64,000 nt of DNA, taken from Escherichia phage vB_EcoM_ASO1A. The stretch lies in sequence record MZ726791.1; one strand, 5' to 3'. The notes under the pieces were generated by a model. The model saw only the letters and a list, made by a program, of their open reading frames with translations. It did not search any database and was not told the origin of the DNA. A program made the translations under genes and the position numbers. This document shows positions 5,870 through 63,897 of this stretch, one piece after another; the stretch's first letter is position 1; each line of letters starts with the position of its first letter.

Positions 5870-6423
5870 GATATTTAAAATATGCTTCATGGATTTTCCT
5901 AGCTTTGCTAGAACCATTAGCAGCAACCTTAGCAGTTATCTTAGCACCTTTCGTAGTTCCATTTTACAGTGAGAAGAAAGGCCACTTACCTTTCGGATTT
6001 AGATGGATGGAGACATATGACAACCCAATTGATGGTGACGAAGGTCATATCGAACGATGGGCTAAGATTAGAAAGATTGGTAAGCTGGGTGTCTACATGC
6101 AGAGAGTCGGATGGCTCTGGAGAAACAAAGCTTATAACTTCTCTTACCATGTATTAGGAAGAGATGTAAAAGATGTTACTAAGTGGAAAGGTAATATCAA
6201 CGTAAGTTCTGACCCTGAAGATAATCAGACAGGTTATCTCCTAATGTGGAACAGTAATGCTTGGGGATTATTCGCTTTTATCCCATCAATTAAAGTCTTT
6301 GGTAAACAATTTTACTGGAGAATTTATATTGGGTGGAAGCTAAAAAGTGTTGTCCCAGAAGAAAGAGCATTCTCAAGGGAAAGAGTTATGTTGGCATTCT
6401 TTATTCATCCACTAAGAAAGTAA
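5866..6423 (+). CDS. hypothetical membrane protein (N-terminal hydrophobic segment, Trp-rich)
   Basis: 185 aa; ATG with AAGGA SD; start overlaps upstream ORF stop (ATGA). Confidence 0.55.
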   Translation: MRYLKYASWIFLALLEPLAATLAVILAPFVVPFYSEKKGHLPFGFRWMETYDNPIDGDEGHIERWAKIRKIGKLGVYMQRVGWLWRNKAYNFSYHVLGRDVKDVTKWKGNINVSSDPEDNQTGYLLMWNSNAWGLFAFIPSIKVFGKQFYWRIYIGWKLKSVVPEERAFSRERVMLAFFIHPLRK

Positions 6424-31153: not shown

Positions 31154-31348
31154 ATGCCTACAATCCTAGCAATTCTTCTAAAAAATCTAGGTAGCTTCTT
31201 CTGGAAACTCATTTTATCCCTTCTAAGTGAATACATGATTGAGAAAGTGTTCTTTAAGCTTGCAAGATACCTTGCGAGTAAAACAGACACACCTATTGAT
31301 GATGAGTTCGTAGATAACTTAGAAAAAGCTTTTAAGGGGGAGAAATAA
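31154..31348 (+). CDS. small hydrophobic protein (holin-like?)
   Basis: 64 aa, GAGGTGA SD, N-terminal hydrophobic segment. Confidence 0.4.
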   Translation: MPTILAILLKNLGSFFWKLILSLLSEYMIEKVFFKLARYLASKTDTPIDDEFVDNLEKAFKGEK

Positions 31349-31720
31349 ATGAAGTGGCTAGAGGAAGCTTTTAAAAATAATATTGGTGCAATTGTAGTTG
31401 GTATTTTTAGTGTTATTGGGATGTATACCACGATGCAAGTTTCAAGTGGTAAACAAGAAGTGTCTGTCACAACAAAGTTACAGCAGTTGGATAATTATTC
31501 CAAAAGTAACTATTCAGCTATTCGTGATTTACAGTCTGACATGAGACTGATTCAGCTAGGGATGGAGAACCAGAAAGTTCAGTTAGAGAATGTTAAGGGT
31601 GAAAACGCAAAACTTACCAAAACTCTTGATAAATTCTCTGACAGTGTGAACAATCTGGCTCAATCAGTATCAGCCCTCCAAGCTATTACTGAGAAGAACA
31701 CAAAGAATACTGAAAAATAA
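31349..31720 (+). CDS. membrane-anchored coiled-coil protein (spanin-like?)
   Basis: 123 aa; N-terminal hydrophobic helix then coiled-coil; AAGGGGGAG SD. Confidence 0.4.
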   Translation: MKWLEEAFKNNIGAIVVGIFSVIGMYTTMQVSSGKQEVSVTTKLQQLDNYSKSNYSAIRDLQSDMRLIQLGMENQKVQLENVKGENAKLTKTLDKFSDSVNNLAQSVSALQAITEKNTKNTEK

Positions 31721-34856: not shown

Positions 34857-35240
34857 TCAAATACCTGTGCAGCTTCTGTTTTCTAAGAAATACTCCACAC
34901 CATACATAGCTTTTTGCATCAAATCTTCTTTAAACTGGATACGGTGGTTGAGCATCGCCTGTACATCAATATCATCACGGTGTTTCTCTTTAATGTTTGC
35001 AGATTGCAGGAAATACTCTGCAAGAACACGATACTGGTAGTCAGTTACCTTATCAGTCATCTCTGTTAAAGACTCTTCAGAGATTGGTTTAAGTAGTTCA
35101 CCATTAGCTAGAGCAACACCTTTTACAATCTGGCAAGTATCCTCTGGGACACCTGATAAGTTCACATTTGGCAGTTCTGTTGCATTAACTGGTAAACTCA
35201 TTGCCATAACCATTGCAGCAGCTAATAAAATCTTTTTCAT
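34857..35240 (-). CDS. secreted protein with signal peptide
   Basis: N-terminal MKKILLAAAMVMAMSLPVNA-TE signal peptide; track start is GTG, moved to ATG after GAGGTG SD. Confidence 0.55.
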   Translation of the reverse strand: MKKILLAAAMVMAMSLPVNATELPNVNLSGVPEDTCQIVKGVALANGELLKPISEESLTEMTDKVTDYQYRVLAEYFLQSANIKEKHRDDIDVQAMLNHRIQFKEDLMQKAMYGVEYFLENRSCTGI

Positions 35241-35414
35241 AAACACCTCAAAGTTATATTAAATTTTGTATGACGTTGAGTATAAAAATAAGCTATAACA
35301 CCTGAACTGTCAACAGATTTTATAGCTTATTTGGCAGATTTTTTATAAGGCTACTGCCATCCTTCCATACCAAACCATACAAGACATAGCCATACCCGAC
35401 CTCACCCTACCGGA

Positions 35415-35453
35415 CATCACTTAAAAACCCTCTTAGAAGACTCTTAAGTGATG
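35415..35453. repeat. conserved hairpin element copy E (10-bp inverted repeat CATCACTTAA/TTAAGTGATG enclosing CCCTCTTAGAAGACTC)
   Basis: Core related to the hairpin family in the tRNA array; sits in a 420-nt intergenic region. Confidence 0.4.
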
Positions 35454-35477
35454 CTGGTGAGTACCCGTTGGTTTATG

Positions 35478-35510
35478 CTGCTCAGTATACTCACCAAATT
35501 TTCTATGTCA
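35478..35510 (-). promoter_or_regulatory. sigma70-like promoter on minus strand (TTGACA - 16 nt - TATACT)
   Basis: Reverse complement read directly; drives downstream minus-strand genes. Confidence 0.5.
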
Positions 35511-35518
35511 ACAACTTT

Positions 35519-35665
35519 TTATAAAAAAGTTCTGATAGCTATATGTGTCACGAAACAAAAGATTGTAAACAAGACACCCATTGCAAAAGATGTGTCCAAA
35601 AGCTTACTTGCAACGTATGACAATACAAAGACAACCAGTATAAACAGAATGACTGTACTGAACAT
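35519..35665 (-). CDS. small two-helix membrane peptide (about 48 aa, not in ORF track)
   Basis: Minus-strand ATG just after ligase stop; translation strongly hydrophobic. Confidence 0.3.
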   Translation of the reverse strand: MFSTVILFILVVFVLSYVASKLLDTSFAMGVLFTIFCFVTHIAIRTFL

Positions 35666-35668
35666 AGT

Positions 35669-36772
35669 TTATTCATAATCCCTAATAACTAGCCCTACAG
35701 GAAACTGTAAAGAACCCTTACGAGTCATCTTCTGGAACTGAACAGTTAAAGGCTTCCCGATAAACTCTTCAGGATGTTCAGCAAGATACTGTTTCTTCTC
35801 GTGTGTAGTTTTCCATGAAACATCTACAAAGACGTTAGGAAGAGTCTCTACAACGAACTTACCATGACCACGCTTATCGGTCTTTACACCAGTCACTTTA
35901 AACTCTTCAGTGTGCATCTTCTTGTGCTTAATCAAGAAGTATGAACGGTGACCACACTCATAGAAGGAGTCTTCAGCAATTGAACGGTACATTGCACCTT
36001 CAAACTTAGCTTCAACCCACTTATCATGGGCTTCGTCAAACGCTTCCCAAGAATTTACACGACGAGACTTAACAGGGACAACTTTACAGCCATCTCTAAA
36101 GTCATTCAATGGTGAAGTCTCAATAATATCTCTACGCTCAGGCCACGTCTTAGTACTGTCACAGATATCATACCAGTAAAACTTAAGTAAGTGTCTGTCA
36201 GGATTGTCTTCATTTTTAATCATAGAGACGATATCTTCTAAGTCCCACCCATGAGCATAAATCTCTCCATCAAATTCATCAACATCTTTGTGGAGCCTTA
36301 ACATTGTCATAATGTCAGGTATTAGTTCAGTAGGGATTTTATAAACAGTATTCTCACGAGAGTATGCTGTAAATACGCTACCAATGCTTAAGTGTCTTGA
36401 AATTCTACAACGGACACCATCAAGTTTTGGTTGAGCATCAGCAGGAAACTTCAGATACTTTGCATGACTAACCTTTGCAGCATCATGAGCAAGCTGTACA
36501 CCTACCTTCTCAGTATTCTGTGCAGACTCTTTTGTGTAAGCATAACCTTTGCGGTCAACTTGTTTCTTGTACTTAGCAGAAACTTCAAAGAGAGCTTGCT
36601 GTTCAGCGTTACGCTCATTCTTTTTACCGATGTTTTTAGGCTCTGCTGTGTACTCTTCAAACATCATCTTACCATTTTCTTTACCATAGGTTGTAATAAC
36701 TTTGTCACCTACAGCAACACATGACCAGACATTGAAAGAGCCATCTTTATTTTGTTTGTACAGTATTGTCAT
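35669..36772 (-). CDS. ATP-dependent DNA ligase
   Basis: Motif I PKLDGVR (KxDG); track ORF trimmed to ATG Met13 preceded by GAGGA SD. Confidence 0.8.
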   Translation of the reverse strand: MTILYKQNKDGSFNVWSCVAVGDKVITTYGKENGKMMFEEYTAEPKNIGKKNERNAEQQALFEVSAKYKKQVDRKGYAYTKESAQNTEKVGVQLAHDAAKVSHAKYLKFPADAQPKLDGVRCRISRHLSIGSVFTAYSRENTVYKIPTELIPDIMTMLRLHKDVDEFDGEIYAHGWDLEDIVSMIKNEDNPDRHLLKFYWYDICDSTKTWPERRDIIETSPLNDFRDGCKVVPVKSRRVNSWEAFDEAHDKWVEAKFEGAMYRSIAEDSFYECGHRSYFLIKHKKMHTEEFKVTGVKTDKRGHGKFVVETLPNVFVDVSWKTTHEKKQYLAEHPEEFIGKPLTVQFQKMTRKGSLQFPVGLVIRDYE

Positions 36773-36773
36773 T

Positions 36774-36965
36774 TTATTCCTCTGAGTGATACCAAGTATT
36801 GCAAGCATTACATGCGTAAAGCTCTAAGTCATTTTTATCTGGTTTATGAAAACAGTTTGCTCCACAGTGGCAACGAAACGGCTTTCCACCAACTGTCAGG
36901 ATGAAGGATTGAACCTTTCCATCAGGAGTTCGTACAGCATTTTCACGGTTATCTTCTTTGCTCAT
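36774..36965 (-). CDS. small Cys-rich zinc-ribbon protein
   Basis: 63 aa with CHCGANC ... CNAC. Confidence 0.45.
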   Translation of the reverse strand: MSKEDNRENAVRTPDGKVQSFILTVGGKPFRCHCGANCFHKPDKNDLELYACNACNTWYHSEE

Positions 36966-37168
36966 TTTCTCTTACCACCAATTTCCACGTCGATAACCTG
37001 AACACCGACAGCAACATCAAACTTGTGAGTAATACTCTCCACAGTGTAAGTCCAACCATCAATACTAACCCGTTCACCCTCTCGTGGTACTATTGGGTTT
37101 TGTTGAGCCACGGTTGCAGTGGAATAAACAACATCGTAGCAATAGATATAGTTGACTAGAATTTGCAT
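36962..37168 (-). CDS. hypothetical small protein
   Basis: Track ORF 36962-37267 trimmed to internal ATG to remove overlap with upstream lipoprotein gene; start uncertain. Confidence 0.35.
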   Translation of the reverse strand: MQILVNYIYCYDVVYSTATVAQQNPIVPREGERVSIDGWTYTVESITHKFDVAVGVQVIDVEIGGKRK

Positions 37169-37169
37169 A

Positions 37170-37436
37170 TCAGTACCCTCCATCAATAACAGTAGTGTGA
37201 GATTGGCCATTTTTGCCATATCTATAAGATGTTGTTGTTTGAGAGTTGGGGCATCTGACAACAACAATATCCCTGCTTATAGCATCACCATTGAGTTTGT
37301 AGATTTTGCAGTCTTGCATCTCTGGAGGGAGGCTGTAAGAGGCATCTTTGTTTTCATAAGATGGGTTACAGCCAGCCAGAAAAATTACTCCAAGTGCAAC
37401 CATTACTTTCACACAACTCTTAACCTTATTGTTCAC
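37170..37436 (-). CDS. putative lipoprotein
   Basis: Signal peptide with lipobox LAGC (MNNKVKSCVKVMVALGVIFLAGC). Confidence 0.55.
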   Translation of the reverse strand: MNNKVKSCVKVMVALGVIFLAGCNPSYENKDASYSLPPEMQDCKIYKLNGDAISRDIVVVRCPNSQTTTSYRYGKNGQSHTTVIDGGY

Positions 37437-38043: not shown

Positions 38044-38559
38044 TCAACTTAGTTTTGCAAACTCTCCGTGGAGTTTAATAGCAGCTTCACAGTAAGCTTT
38101 ATGGGCTTCTTCTTCTGTTGTGTACGTCCCTATATGTATAGTCTTACCATTATGGTTAATCTGGGCTATCCACTTACCAGACTTGCTTCTACTTGTACCT
38201 TTTAAGTTTTTTGATGTTCTGGGTTGTCTCCTATTAGACATGTTCTGCTCTTTTGTGGCCTCTCTTAGATTGTCCCAAGCGTTATTCAAACCATCCCCAT
38301 CTTTGTGGTCAATGTGTTTATCAGGCCACTTACCTGTCATCCAGAACCAAGCAATTCGGTGATTACCTGTCCTGTATCCTAAAATCTGTGTGTGCATATA
38401 CACACCAGACCTTGTGCGCTTAATTGCTCCGGCTTGGCTTCCAATGACCACCCTACTACTATGTGGAGGTCTGCCAATCCATGTTAAGACCCCTGTTTCG
38501 GGGTCATAATCTAACCAAGACTTTAACTGTTCATGTGTGAATCCACAATCTCTCATCAA
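38044..38559 (-). CDS. HNH homing endonuclease with AP2-like DNA-binding domain
   Basis: HIDHKDGDGLNNAWDNLR (HNH) and YDPETGVLTW N-terminal motif shared with two paralogs; abuts the DNA polymerase gene. Confidence 0.75.
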   Translation of the reverse strand: MMRDCGFTHEQLKSWLDYDPETGVLTWIGRPPHSSRVVIGSQAGAIKRTRSGVYMHTQILGYRTGNHRIAWFWMTGKWPDKHIDHKDGDGLNNAWDNLREATKEQNMSNRRQPRTSKNLKGTSRSKSGKWIAQINHNGKTIHIGTYTTEEEAHKAYCEAAIKLHGEFAKLS

Positions 38560-41255
38560 TGTACCTCATACCAGCTTTTACCAACCTTACCAGTACCAGT
38601 TACCAGTGTTTCACTCTTTAGTCCTAAGTTCTTAGAGGCTTGCCCGTAATACCAATCAGTGACAGCCTTCACCTCTGCCGTCATACTTTCTGGACATTCC
38701 CAACTCGTCTCATCGTGATAGGAGCACAATAAACGAGCACCTATAGCTGGTTTGCGACCGTTCAACTTCATCAAACCTTCGTCAATCATACGACGGCAAG
38801 CAAGGTTAATTGCCTCGTTCTGAATCTGACTTTCCGAACCCATAAGCAAATAATTCAACAACTTATGTGGAGATTTACACCACAACCAAGCTCCAGCAAC
38901 CTTTACAAAACCCCCTTTAGAGATTGCAGCAGTCTTACCAAACACCTCTTCAAGTGCCTTTTTAGTTGCTTTGTAGTCAGCTTCCAAGTCATCTAGCAGC
39001 TTCTTAATTTTAGGCAAACGAATAAAGTAAGTCTGTTTAGTCAGTGCACCTTCCTGAGTAGTTGCAGCTTTAATCGTCTTAGCAAACTTCTCATCACCTG
39101 CACCGAACAGCAGTGCATAGATACCATTCTTAGCTTTCTTACGGCCTTTGCTAATCTCATGGAGAAGGTTCTCATCCTGAGTAGCTCGACAAGTCAAGAT
39201 ATCCTGCTCATCATTCAAGCTAAAGTAAATACTGTTCAATGTATGTGCATCAGTCCCTGAATAGACAACGTACAGGTCATTCTCAGAGTCATAGCGAAGG
39301 TACTTATCAATCTCTGGGTTCAGGTACTCATCAAAATGTTTGCAGTAATAGCGTCCATCTTCTTGACGAATGAACTCAATTTCTTCTTTACCTTGCGTTA
39401 CCGCTTTGGTGAAGTCTTTATCACCCATAAAGTTACAAAGAAGAACTAGCTGGGCTGAGTTCATATCTACAGAGACAACGTTAGTACCTTCCTCACAAAT
39501 CCATACTGCCCTCATTGGTTCTCCATAGACAGCAGCACCAGACGGTACGTTTACAATACCATACTGTGTCATACGTCCAGTTGAAGTACCAAACACCATT
39601 GCACCAGCACTAAGGCGACCATCAGGACGAATCTGGTTAAGCCAACCTTTTTCATCATCCTTTGAGTTCTCAATAGTTCTGCGTCGGTGCATCAAAGTAT
39701 AGTACTTAGCAATCTTCTGTCCAAGCTCACCTTCAATCGTATCATAAGATGATTCAGTAAGTTTTGGTGAAGTACGGATTAAGCAAGGTTCAAGCAAATC
39801 TGTGTATTTCTTCACAGACCAGTTATGCTCGATGTACTGTACACCTTCATGTTCAACATAACTCAAACCACACCGCTCAACCATTTCCTGCCACTTAGGA
39901 TGCTTTGTAATCATCTTTTTATTGTCTTTGAAACGACAAACTTTGACAGGGCGACCGTCTGAGTCTTTCTTGTAGTTCCAGTCATCTGGAATCCAACCAA
40001 CTGATTTCAAGTAGTCTTTTACAACTGCTACCTGAGTCATACGAGAAACTTCAAACTCAATTGGTGTATATGGTGCATCAATCAATCCTGTGTAGCGACT
40101 TGACTCAAGTTCAAAGTGGTTAACAACGTGGCTGTTATAGTACTTCACAGTTTTGACTGTTTTTACTGGCTTCCAGTCTTTGCATTTCTTACCAATCTTT
40201 GCATTCAACTCATTGCAAATTGCACGAGCATCCTTCATTGCTACAAAACCTTCCTTGTACTCTTCACCAGTTACAGAGTTGGTTGGTGTGTAGCAATTTC
40301 TCTTTTCAATGTTAAAAATCTTTGTAGTTGGCTTACCAAACGGTTTGATTTCGTATGTCTGCATCTCACCGTTACGTACCTGTTGACGATACTTTGTCTT
40401 AGGGTACTTGGTAATTCTCTTCAGTCCATCTGCATGACCGAACGCTTCAACATACTCATTCCAAGCTTTTGCAAACTCTTCTCCAGTGACTTTACCTTTG
40501 GTCTTAATAGTTGGAGGAAGATGTGGTTCAACCTCTGAAGCAAGCTCATTAGTCAACTTGTCAAGTTCCTTTACATGGAACTCCATAAGCTCTTTATCAG
40601 CTTTCCAACCATTGATAGCTTGTTGACTCATCCAGAAAGATGTTTCTTTAGCTCGCATGTAGGTTTCATAAGTGTCTATGCCACACTTCTTAAGCTTGAG
40701 ATACTCATTATCAAGTGCCCGTTTAGTTTTGGCGTTAATACGGATATCTTCTACAACACGAGTGAAGATTTCTGCATTCCACACACCCCAATGTTCAATC
40801 TCTGGTTTACGAACACCAACACGAGCACCCCATGCAGCCAAGCCATGAGCACCTTTATAACCCTTTGGAGTTGGTCTATCCATCCACTGAACACGAGACT
40901 GGATAAGAGAATCCTGAAAGAAATTACTCCACGGCTTACACTTTGGATTATCAAAGTTCCATAAATCCGGTGCAATGTGATTGAAAACCCACCAGTCATA
41001 ACCTAGACCATTATGAATGCAAAGACGTTTTGCCTTTAACGCAAACTCAATACCTTCACGTAAGCCACCCTTAATGTACTTGGTATACTTGTGACCGAGG
41101 ATAGGCTCATCTGTAAAGACCCATACAGGTGGCTCTTCATCGTCAGATTTATAGTCTGCGAAAGCCATTACGTGCACTTTAGTGAACTCAAGGAGTAAAC
41201 CATCAGTTTCTGTATCACCAACTAAATGTAAGTTTTTAAAATCTACGTTTTCCAT
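38556..41255 (-). CDS. DNA polymerase, family A (Pol I-like) with 3'-5' exonuclease domain
   Basis: Exo I motif DTETDGL near N-terminus; ~900 aa; start set to Met11 with AGGGAG SD. Confidence 0.85.
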   Translation of the reverse strand: MENVDFKNLHLVGDTETDGLLLEFTKVHVMAFADYKSDDEEPPVWVFTDEPILGHKYTKYIKGGLREGIEFALKAKRLCIHNGLGYDWWVFNHIAPDLWNFDNPKCKPWSNFFQDSLIQSRVQWMDRPTPKGYKGAHGLAAWGARVGVRKPEIEHWGVWNAEIFTRVVEDIRINAKTKRALDNEYLKLKKCGIDTYETYMRAKETSFWMSQQAINGWKADKELMEFHVKELDKLTNELASEVEPHLPPTIKTKGKVTGEEFAKAWNEYVEAFGHADGLKRITKYPKTKYRQQVRNGEMQTYEIKPFGKPTTKIFNIEKRNCYTPTNSVTGEEYKEGFVAMKDARAICNELNAKIGKKCKDWKPVKTVKTVKYYNSHVVNHFELESSRYTGLIDAPYTPIEFEVSRMTQVAVVKDYLKSVGWIPDDWNYKKDSDGRPVKVCRFKDNKKMITKHPKWQEMVERCGLSYVEHEGVQYIEHNWSVKKYTDLLEPCLIRTSPKLTESSYDTIEGELGQKIAKYYTLMHRRRTIENSKDDEKGWLNQIRPDGRLSAGAMVFGTSTGRMTQYGIVNVPSGAAVYGEPMRAVWICEEGTNVVSVDMNSAQLVLLCNFMGDKDFTKAVTQGKEEIEFIRQEDGRYYCKHFDEYLNPEIDKYLRYDSENDLYVVYSGTDAHTLNSIYFSLNDEQDILTCRATQDENLLHEISKGRKKAKNGIYALLFGAGDEKFAKTIKAATTQEGALTKQTYFIRLPKIKKLLDDLEADYKATKKALEEVFGKTAAISKGGFVKVAGAWLWCKSPHKLLNYLLMGSESQIQNEAINLACRRMIDEGLMKLNGRKPAIGARLLCSYHDETSWECPESMTAEVKAVTDWYYGQASKNLGLKSETLVTGTGKVGKSWYEVH

Positions 41256-41314
41256 TTTTACTCCCTCTAAAATCATTAACCTCATACATTACTGCAAAAA
41301 ATTATAAAAAGCAA

Positions 41315-54439: not shown

Positions 54440-54681
54440 TGACTTATGTAATTTACTCCAAAACTGGATGCCCTCAGTGCGAGACTGCAAAGAATTTTGC
54501 AAAAGCTCGTGGTATTGACCATGTTGTGAGAATGTTAGGGCAGGACTATGAACTATCAGACCTGATTGATATTGCACAGATGCCAGTTCGTCAGATGCCA
54601 TTCATCATGAAAACTGATGGGCAAAACCTAAAACATGTTGGTACGCTACAGAATTTTATGGCAGAGGTGAATAATGCTTAA
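54439..54681 (+). CDS. glutaredoxin / NrdH-like redoxin
   Basis: 80 aa with CPQC active-site motif. Confidence 0.75.
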   Translation: MTYVIYSKTGCPQCETAKNFAKARGIDHVVRMLGQDYELSDLIDIAQMPVRQMPFIMKTDGQNLKHVGTLQNFMAEVNNA

Positions 54682-54880
54682 ACGCATTTGGGAAGGTTTG
54701 GTTGTTGATGCACCAGCTATTGTGATTGGTATGCTTATCGTTAACCTATTTACTGACTTTGAACAAGGTTCATTGTTTGGAGCCATGTTACTATGGGTTA
54801 TCTTCGAAATATTAGAGATACAGTTAGGTATCACTGAAAAACTAAGAGAACTCTTTGCGAAGTTTTCTAAAAAGATTTAA
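54674..54880 (+). CDS. small membrane protein
   Basis: 68 aa, hydrophobic. Confidence 0.4.
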   Translation: MLKRIWEGLVVDAPAIVIGMLIVNLFTDFEQGSLFGAMLLWVIFEILEIQLGITEKLRELFAKFSKKI

Positions 54881-57073: not shown

Positions 57074-57125
57074 AACTTGACAAGGTGATGTGGGTCTTGA
57101 TAGGCTTACATCACCTTTTTTTTTT
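57067..57125 (+). promoter_or_regulatory. promoter (TTGACA - 18 nt - TAGGCT) superimposed on terminator hairpin (GGTGATGT ... ACATCACC + T11)
   Basis: Read directly after nrdD stop. Confidence 0.5.
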
Positions 57126-57232
57126 TATTGGATGTTAGATATGGCAGAGAACATCATTGGCCTATTCATAGGTTCTGTCTTACTAGGGTTCTTTTTAGGA
57201 CTCTCTTATTGTGAATTAAGAGGCAAGTTAAA

Positions 57233-57433
57233 ATGTTTAAAATATCAAAATCGTTGATATACATTCTCCACATTCTAATCTTCTTCTTTGGGGTTAGTGT
57301 TATGGTATGGGGTTTTTCAGACCCACAGTGGAGTTTATCATATCATGGTCAGATGGATTTATGGTCATGCTTCAAACCATTTTTAGGGTTAGCCATAGCA
57401 TTCAGTGTATTGCCAACTAAGGTGAAATTATGA
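57233..57433 (+). CDS. small membrane protein
   Basis: 66 aa, AAGAGG SD, hydrophobic. Confidence 0.45.
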   Translation: MFKISKSLIYILHILIFFFGVSVMVWGFSDPQWSLSYHGQMDLWSCFKPFLGLAIAFSVLPTKVKL

Positions 57434-63403: not shown

Positions 63404-63739
63404 ATGAAAATCAAAGAAATGAACATCAACATTGTCTTAGAAGAACGTTGGGAGAACATCAAGAAGACTGAAGATGGTCATAAGTTCCTCAACAAAATTT
63501 TAGTAGCAGCTAAAGAAGAACTGACTGGAAAGGTTGCAGCAGCAATCACAATAAAGGTTTGTGTAAAAGGTCTTCCACAACATCACCAGTTTGCGCTTGA
63601 CGAGTTTAAAAAAAGCTTCTACAATCCAAACAAACAGATGCTTGAAAGTAACTTTGCAGTATCTACAAGTATCGTTCATGACAGAAGCTTTATCCTTTAC
63701 AAAAACATGAGAGGTGAGTCATGCAAGCATATTGGATAG
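63404..63739 (+). CDS. hypothetical protein
   Basis: 111 aa, GGAGAAAA SD. Confidence 0.5.
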   Translation: MKIKEMNINIVLEERWENIKKTEDGHKFLNKILVAAKEELTGKVAAAITIKVCVKGLPQHHQFALDEFKKSFYNPNKQMLESNFAVSTSIVHDRSFILYKNMRGESCKHIG

Positions 63740-63897
63740 AAATTTTACTGTCACTTGGTAGTGTAGCAATATTTGTTTGCCTTCTTTGTAAGTACTTTGC
63801 AGAACACAAAAAGTGTGACTACTGTAACGGAGAAGGGTATACAAGAGCAGGTTGTTGCCCTATTTGTGGTGGTTCTGGTAAAATGTTTAATAAGTAA
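63721..63897 (+). CDS. small membrane-anchored double zinc-finger peptide (about 58 aa, not in ORF track)
   Basis: N-terminal hydrophobic helix then CDYCNGEG and CPICGGSG (DnaJ-type CxxCxGxG repeats). Confidence 0.35.
   Translation: MQAYWIEILLSLGSVAIFVCLLCKYFAEHKKCDYCNGEGYTRAGCCPICGGSGKMFNK

Follow-up and report, generated by a model that had tools for sequence, protein, structure and literature searches.

The 64,000-nucleotide stretch of Escherichia phage vB_EcoM_ASO1A analysed here (MZ726791.1; hereafter the window) contains three small minus-strand genes whose products are predicted to leave the cytoplasm. One would reach the periplasm as a secreted protein, one would carry a lipid anchor in the outer membrane, and one would sit in the inner membrane as a two-helix peptide. 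All three open reading frames (ORFs) were present at the coordinates collected in Table 1. Sequence comparisons indicate that all are real genes under purifying selection, with ratios of nonsynonymous to synonymous substitution (dN/dS) of 0.03–0.26. The best explanation that we can offer, tentatively and by analogy, is that their products provide early protection of the envelope from the periplasm and inner membrane, or post-adsorption exclusion.

By sequence, the window is that of a Felixounavirus (Felix O1-like myovirus, Ounavirinae), and the 3.1-kb stretch around the three ORFs was 88–94% identical in DNA to approximately 260 Felix O1-like myoviruses, such as KEP1, Andreotti, and ASO1B. Each product matched one PHROG profile, namely phrog_4332 for the secreted protein (E = 1.6e-66), phrog_902 for the lipoprotein (E = 3e-18), and phrog_22006 for the peptide (E = 5.5e-33), all of which are annotated as "unknown function". 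Searches of the three proteins and their family members against Pfam, NCBIfam, and PADLOC returned nothing significant; the sole matches, to EexN, TrbK, and StaA, were at the level of the signal peptide. The targeting assignments described below combine heuristics with the conservation of the signals.

The start codon of the secreted-protein gene is ATG 35240, and its ribosome-binding site, GAGGTG, lies 6 nucleotides (nt) upstream. The predicted signal peptide, MKKILLAAAMVMAMSLPVNA, is followed by TE and has a basic n-region, a 13-residue h-region, and V-N-A at −3/−1 (a V-x-A site). The n-, h-, and c-regions of a Sec-dependent signal peptidase I substrate, with small residues at −3 and −1, were found as MKK, ILLAAAMVMAMSL, and PVNA before the T of the mature chain. 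Orthologues in Moogle, phiSUSP1, Sf14, and ESh22 were only 30–35% identical, and all four had the MKK start, a hydrophobic stretch, and an AVA, ASA, AYA, or AAA site before the mature part. Two cysteines near the two ends of the mature chain, C36 and C124, were invariant in the orthologues. A conserved targeting signal together with such a cysteine pair is the pattern expected of a periplasmic, DsbA-oxidised protein, and one disulfide joining the N- and C-terminal parts is predicted.

The secreted protein is highly constrained and narrowly distributed. Its dN/dS against six relatives was 0.03–0.10, and the phrog_4332 family was confined to Ounavirinae. By tblastn, it was found in 258 phage records, in 189 of which it was at least 95% identical, and among 5.8 billion proteins the family formed only four clusters, all at least 91% identical. 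Neither Pfam, NCBIfam, and PADLOC nor single-sequence and profile searches of PDB chains yielded a relative. An AlphaFold2 model, built from a shallow alignment without the distant orthologues, was all-helical, but its predicted local distance difference test (pLDDT) score of 41.4 is too poor for fold comparison. The model nevertheless suggests that the mature protein is probably all-helical.

The lipoprotein gene starts with GTG preceded by AGAGGT, and an alternative GTG at 37412 lies near the position of the ATG of its relatives. The precursor, MNNKVKSCVKVMVALGVIFLAGC followed by NPSY, contains a textbook lipobox, L-A-G-C, ending at Cys23. All six reading frames of the window were scanned, from each possible start codon, for a basic n-region, an uncharged h-region, and a lipobox of the form [LVI][ASTVI][GAS]C within approximately the first 35 residues. 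This stringent scan returned only the lipoprotein gene, through its two alternative starts. The lipobox was kept in 219 of 224 retrieved family members, 160 of which had exactly three cysteines. In an alignment of 125 sequences, C23 (the predicted lipid-bearing residue), C43, and C62 were the only invariant columns, and the consensus was …LxGC(x7)TxxYxLPxELxDCKxYxL…VVRCPNSxTTTxYxxGK…. The product is thus predicted to be an Lgt/LspA substrate with one disulfide. The residue at +2 is Asn here, which under the E. coli rule predicts sorting to the outer membrane; 27 of the 219 members with a lipobox have Asp instead.

AlphaFold2 modelled the lipoprotein as a small five-strand beta fold (pLDDT 62.8), which suggests that the mature 66-amino acid (aa) domain is beta-rich. 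Foldseek found no match to the model in the PDB below E = 1. In BFVD, the model matched phage proteins named "Lipoprotein" from Aeromonas phage Aeh1 (template-modelling score 0.85), Vibrio JSF10, and Acinetobacter ME3, along with unnamed proteins of Aeromonas phiAS5 and Yersinia fHe-Yen9-03. A sequence profile searched against all PDB chains retrieved nothing beyond lipoprotein signal peptides.

The lipoprotein family is large and widespread. A profile search of 1.84 billion representatives gave 631 clusters (50% identity) at E ≤ 1e-3 and 87 at E ≤ 1e-10, with lengths of 61–137 aa among the matches listed. By tblastn, the family was detected in 598 phage records, including 295 Vibrio phages; it also occurs in phages of Acinetobacter, Pectobacterium, and Erwinia, in the jumbo phage PBECO4, and in the Vequintavirinae phage 4MG. 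Nearly all homologues carried the precomputed Pfam tag DUF4884 (PF16225), and the NCBI name "DUF4884 domain-containing protein" is applied to an 86-aa homologue in a T1-like phage. Unlike these tags, a local hmmscan against Pfam-A gave no PF16225 match for the window lipoprotein or any of 125 members, a mismatch explained either by absence of the model from the local library or by differing thresholds. Among 185,579 bacterial species genomes, the motif VVRCPNSxT[TS] occurred at one locus, indicating that the family is essentially phage-borne. That locus, on a contig of Hylemonella gracilis ATCC 19624 (5956–6234), keeps the LAGC lipobox and is probably prophage-borne.

In the window, the lipoprotein gene lies between the DNA polymerase and ligase genes, with soluble ORFs of 42 and 67 aa as neighbours, and under our best explanation it would be co-transcribed with the polymerase and ligase. 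We compared eight contexts, namely the window, Moogle, two metagenomic contigs, and phages of Acinetobacter, Vibrio, and E. coli (two). In all eight, the gene stood solo among small early genes close to replication genes, and in none was a tail-fibre or receptor-binding gene beside it. All-against-all BLAST of seven of the neighbourhoods revealed no second conserved gene.

The 48-aa peptide, MFSTVILFILVVFVLSYVASKLLDTSFAMGVLFTIFCFVTHIAIRTFL, has two hydrophobic segments with KD17 peaks of 2.72 and 2.18. Its ATG lies three bases after the ligase TAA, which implies translational coupling to the ligase gene. In five other Felixounaviruses, the ORF had exactly 48 codons, 75–83% aa identity, and a dN/dS of 0.12–0.26 against the window; variable columns at codon positions 1, 2, and 3 numbered 14, 4, and 18. 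The maintained frame, the codon-position pattern, and the dN/dS together indicate a real gene. A 48-codon counterpart directly follows the ligase gene also in Sf14 and Moogle (Mooglevirus), with 42–44% identity and a conserved SKLL loop. This loop is basic in the orthologues and is therefore probably cytoplasmic, with both termini outside.

The peptide gene is accessory. Close homologues (at least 75% aa identity) were found in only 65 phage records, and none was present in Felix O1 or ASO1B. The peptide is annotated as a hypothetical protein in VpaE1, Alf5, L27, and Bas63, and identical proteins are YP_009147357 (VpaE1) and YP_009288271 (Alf5); most GenBank records leave it unannotated. Felix O1-like sequence 100% identical to the 48-aa ORF also appears in GU169904, labelled Staphylococcus phage SA1, and in two records labelled as Campylobacter phages, which are probably mislabelled or contaminated.

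The initial annotation of this region, made from the sequence alone, had proposed a cleavable signal peptide on the first protein, a LAGC lipobox on the second, and an unannotated double-transmembrane peptide after the ligase gene, all in an early/middle operon. Its structural reading is supported by targeting signals that persist in distant homologues: the Sec signal peptide and an AxA site are kept in orthologues, and the lipobox was recovered both by the six-frame scan and across the family. For the peptide, the two segments and the coding status were upheld, while the term "unannotated" needs qualifying given phrog_22006 and the annotation in some phages.

Table 1. Positions of the three genes and of other features in the window (strand as + or −; targeting and promoter entries are predictions).
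Feature	Position	Strand	Description
Secreted (periplasmic) protein gene	34857–35240	−	127 aa; signal peptide 1–20 (nt 35181–35240); mature part 107 aa; phrog_4332
Lipoprotein precursor gene	37170–37436	−	88 aa; lipobox LAGC; lipid Cys23 at nt 37368–37370; Asn at +2; mature part 66 aa
Two-helix inner-membrane peptide gene	35519–35665	−	48 aa; phrog_22006; ATG 3 nt past ligase stop
Intergenic leader	35241–35518	−	278 nt between peptide ORF and secreted-protein gene; two promoters, 19-bp hairpin, variable GGT-rich repeat core
Promoter P1	35484–35511	−	Near-consensus sigma-70, TTGACA-N16-TATACT, 11/12; directly downstream of peptide ORF
Promoter-like site P2	35285–35313	−	TTGACA-N17-TATTTT, 10/12
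DNA polymerase gene	38556–41285	−	First in block order
HNH/AP2-type homing endonuclease gene	38044–38559	−	
Zinc-ribbon-like ORF	36774–36965	−	63 aa; phrog_5768
Putative holin ORF	31349–31720	+	123 aa
ORF preceding putative holin	31154–31348	+	64 aa
Small hydrophobic ORF	54674–54880	+	
Small hydrophobic ORF	57090–57257	+	
Small hydrophobic ORF	57233–57433	+	
Small hydrophobic ORF	63721–63897	+	

The minus-strand block that holds the three genes runs in the order DNA polymerase, HNH/AP2 endonuclease, small ORFs, ATP-dependent DNA ligase, Cro/CI-type regulator, dihydrofolate reductase (DHFR), and thymidylate synthase, with start and stop codons closely packed or overlapping. It is a block of replication and nucleotide-metabolism genes and is presumably expressed early or in the middle of infection. 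The endonuclease gene lies directly downstream of the polymerase gene with a 4-nt overlap, and its counterpart in ASO1B is annotated "HNH homing endonuclease". The 63-aa ORF that overlaps the ligase start has a zinc-ribbon-like cysteine pattern of the form HC…C / C..C (FRCHCGANCFHK…YACNACNTWYH). In several GenBank records it bears the label "DNA ligase" (VOG1487); it is actually a separate small gene.

The leader upstream of the secreted-protein gene has features of its own. Promoter P1 is predicted to head a transcription unit whose first gene encodes the secreted protein. The −35 hexamer of P2 falls in the loop of an 11-bp inverted repeat, which is followed by T5. The core of the leader is a variable, GGT-rich degenerate tandem repeat, whereas its flanks were approximately 100% identical in seven Felixounaviruses, although the adjacent ORF was only approximately 80% identical. 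The predicted RNA fold had a z-score of −4.7, and a search of Rfam gave no match. Possible roles of the element are those of a regulatory leader, a small RNA, or an operator bound by the helix–turn–helix regulator encoded downstream. The gap between the ligase and secreted-protein genes is also an insertion hot spot, with two extra genes in ASO1B (genes 085/086) and in Moogle (genes 43/44) that are flanked by their own predicted promoters and terminators.

How might three such proteins act? Under the explanation we favour, three independent coding accessory genes in the early/middle replication block would act early from within the envelope, and their products would protect or re-programme the envelope of the infected cell. 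In the manner of T4 Imm and Spackle, they would exclude superinfecting phages after adsorption or stabilise the envelope, and would not mask the lipopolysaccharide (LPS) receptor. The lipoprotein would bind a periplasmic or outer-membrane host component, which its core-like conservation and host-independent distribution suggest to be a conserved one. Since the secreted protein and the peptide are lineage-specific, their partner would be lineage-specific as well. In favour of this explanation, export signals are conserved in distant homologues and the invariant cysteines are typical of oxidised periplasmic proteins. Moreover, all three genes share a minus-strand block with DNA polymerase, ligase, DHFR, and thymidylate synthase, and a strong predicted promoter precedes the secreted-protein gene.

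Several points weigh on the other side. Sequence similarity to Spackle, RI, Llp, or another solved chain was absent, as was any PADLOC or NCBIfam match. The baseplate and tail proteins of the window yielded no lysozyme domain, so a Spackle-type target is not evident there. The strong purifying selection and the near-invariance of the secreted protein within the genus lack the arms-race signature often seen in exclusion factors. The structure models are of low confidence for both the lipoprotein and the secreted protein. Early timing of the three genes is read from their position and promoters, and we found no study of transcription timing or of the transcriptome of a Felixounavirus in the searchable literature. 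The same literature holds no study of these genes or of DUF4884 function. Finally, small membrane ORFs are fairly common in this phage, so membrane location alone says little: four more (55–68 aa, with one or two strongly hydrophobic segments) occur in the other early block, on the plus strand.

The main alternative, though a doubtful one, is that the DUF4884-type lipoprotein, and possibly the secreted protein, is a host-takeover effector. It would bind a conserved envelope machine or enzyme, with Lpt, Bam, Lol, Tol-Pal, a peptidoglycan hydrolase, or a stress sensor as candidate targets, and so keep the envelope intact or blunt stress or defence responses until programmed lysis. The lipoprotein motif (LPxELxDCK…VVRCPNSxTTT…GK) recurs in phages of E. 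coli, Salmonella, Vibrio, Acinetobacter, Aeromonas, Yersinia, Pectobacterium, and Erwinia, with jumbo, T4-like, T5-sized, and T1-like genomes. It is as conserved between genera as core enzymes, always stands solo among early genes, and is nearly absent from bacterial chromosomes. Spread, conservation, gene setting, and chromosomal rarity together point to a conserved, receptor-independent host target. However, similarity of the lipoprotein to characterised inhibitors or to lipoproteins of the host was not found, and the variable +2 residue means that the membrane of residence is not fixed. We would go as far as a speculative proposal, itself rather unlikely, that phrog_902/DUF4884-type lipoproteins form a widespread family of receptor-independent periplasmic effectors of virulent Gammaproteobacteria phages. 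By acting on a single conserved component of the host envelope, they would exclude superinfecting phages after adsorption, or take over the envelope, through a generic mechanism that is new and differs from those of Llp, Cor, Rtp45, Imm, and Spackle.

We also considered whether the three proteins could set the timing of lysis. The secreted protein would then be an RI-like periplasmic antiholin acting on the putative holin, the peptide a holin- or antiholin-like modulator, and the lipoprotein a spanin accessory. The initial annotation had placed the genes outside the lysis cassette, which is true but carries little weight, because lysis genes are scattered in Felix O1-like genomes; the same scatter leaves room for a lysis role. 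T4 RI is a small exported helical protein, and the putative holin, whose single N-terminal transmembrane segment is followed by a long, coiled-coil-like periplasmic region, has a topology that could allow a periplasmic regulator to act on it. Against this, the holin homologue was 91% identical between the window and Moogle and the secreted protein 35%, so the two do not appear to co-evolve. In addition, the signal peptide of the secreted protein differs from a signal-anchor-release (SAR) domain in being short and having a clear AxA site. Compared with known holins, the 48-aa peptide is too short and lacks the charged C-terminal tail, and many relatives, Felix O1 among them, do not have it. Elsewhere there is a complete i-/o-spanin pair, no transmembrane or coiled-coil partner flanks the lipoprotein in any context, and PDB searches gave no sequence match. 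A lysis-timing role is therefore improbable.

Two specific lysis assignments were rejected. For the lipoprotein as an o-spanin, no i-spanin was adjacent, overlapping, or embedded, no neighbour was conserved in seven contexts, and Moogle has a separate annotated pair. That overlapped i-/o-spanin pair (genes 121/122) lies beside polynucleotide kinase and has no homologue inside the window, while the lipoprotein homologue in Moogle (gene 40) is left hypothetical. The peptide does not fit a class II holin: it is 48 aa long, ends in …IRTFL, and follows the ligase gene, and the Moogle endolysin lies elsewhere. The putative holin, named for its Moogle counterpart, also resembles an i-spanin or a T4 T-type holin in architecture and has no lipoprotein partner adjacent. 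The 64-aa ORF preceding it is likewise 91% conserved.

The initial annotation had further suggested that such envelope proteins often serve superinfection exclusion or receptor masking. In the manner of T5 Llp, Cor, and Rtp45, the lipoprotein would sit on the periplasmic face of an outer-membrane receptor and allosterically block docking of the receptor-binding protein. It does share the general design of Llp and Rtp45 as a small (~6–7 kDa) lipoprotein of a virulent phage, and T5 Llp presumably also carries a disulfide. Nevertheless, this half of the suggestion is disfavoured by the gene contexts, the host spread, the lack of Llp similarity, and a mismatch between the secreted protein and the tail fibre. 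The lipoprotein gene adjoined no receptor-binding protein gene in the eight contexts, and its family spans phages of unrelated hosts and tails (Vibrio, Acinetobacter, Aeromonas, and E. coli). The mature domain matched no solved chain; T5 Llp (8a60_B) was hit only through its signal peptide (E = 3.4). Felix O1-type phages, moreover, use the LPS core rather than a protein channel as receptor.

Divergence patterns agree with this. Between the window and Moogle, identity was core-like for the ligase (87%), thymidylate synthase (78%), baseplate proteins (79–93%), the putative holin (91%), and the lipoprotein (80%), whereas the long tail fibre (39%), the secreted protein (35%), and the peptide (42%) diverged fast. 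Conservation of the lipoprotein thus far exceeds that of the tail fibre. Between genera, the secreted protein seemed to co-vary with the receptor-binding protein, but this was rejected within Felixounavirus, where the long tail fibre was only 60–80% identical in 201 of 279 records while the secreted protein stayed nearly constant in its own 258. The secreted protein therefore does not track receptor specificity. Gene contexts and the lack of within-genus co-variation argue against masking of the Llp, Cor, or Rtp45 kind, which we regard as very unlikely. The idea that any of the ORFs is a decaying gene or a frame left open by chance can practically be dismissed: although the 48-aa ORF is unannotated in most GenBank records and absent from many relatives, purifying selection, exact length conservation across genera, PHROG families for all three, and ribosome-binding sites or translational coupling speak against it.

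Felix O1-like phages are widely used for typing and biocontrol of Salmonella and E. coli, and envelope-altering proteins affect cocktail design, the dynamics of superinfection and co-infection, and lysis behaviour. What our analysis contributes is a set of targeting predictions for three "hypothetical proteins". Of the three, the lipoprotein offers the most useful lead: its family is very large, uncharacterised, and phage-borne, and extends across host genera and phage morphotypes. If a function were found for one tractable member, for example the homologue in Bas63, hundreds of phage genomes could be annotated.

Among known systems, the window lipoprotein belongs by its PHROG 902 match with the uncharacterised small lipoproteins of Pfam DUF4884 (PF16225). 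It resembles o-spanins (Rz1 and T4 PseT.2) as a small outer-membrane lipoprotein with periplasmic cysteines, but it lacks an adjacent or embedded i-spanin, and the lineage has its own overlapped spanin pair. With T5 Llp, phi80/T1 Cor, and Rtp Rtp45, it shares a small (~6–7 kDa mature) periplasm-facing form and a virulent phage as carrier. It differs from them in a mature domain unrelated to solved chains, a gene unlinked to a receptor-binding gene, a distribution independent of host and receptor, and a presumed receptor that is LPS rather than FhuA or LptD. Apart from the signal peptide of Llp, the profile search of PDB chains listed no exclusion lipoprotein, and NCBIfam gave no match.

The membrane peptide can be set beside T4 Imm, an 83-aa inner-membrane superinfection-immunity protein encoded by an early gene next to DNA-metabolism genes. 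The two differ in length (83 versus 48 aa), and the peptide occurs only in a subset of Felixounaviruses, with phrog_22006 as its sole PHROG match. They are alike as small, hydrophobic, two-segment inner-membrane products from a DNA-metabolism neighbourhood; the likeness is one of analogy.

The secreted protein is best compared with T4 Spackle (Sp, gp61.3), the periplasmic inhibitor of the gp5 tail lysozyme, an early protein of 75 aa that forms a helical bundle with a Cys29–Cys81 disulfide. The mature proteins differ in length (75 versus 107 aa), and the secreted-protein family occurs only in Ounavirinae. Phmmer and profile searches of all PDB chains, which should contain Spackle since crystal structures are reported (entry codes were not checked), gave no relevant match. 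As to a tail-lysozyme target, the tape-measure, Dit, plug, hub, and baseplate ORFs of the window, the only proteins covered, had no Pfam domain of a lysozyme or peptidoglycan hydrolase. The parallels lie in form and setting. Both are small early-region products with a cleavable export signal, both are helical (here in a model with a pLDDT of only 41), both have one disulfide joining N- and C-terminal parts (here predicted from C36 and C124), and both genes are embedded among replication genes. By analogy, post-adsorption exclusion like that of T4 Imm or Spackle is a possible role for these envelope-targeted proteins.

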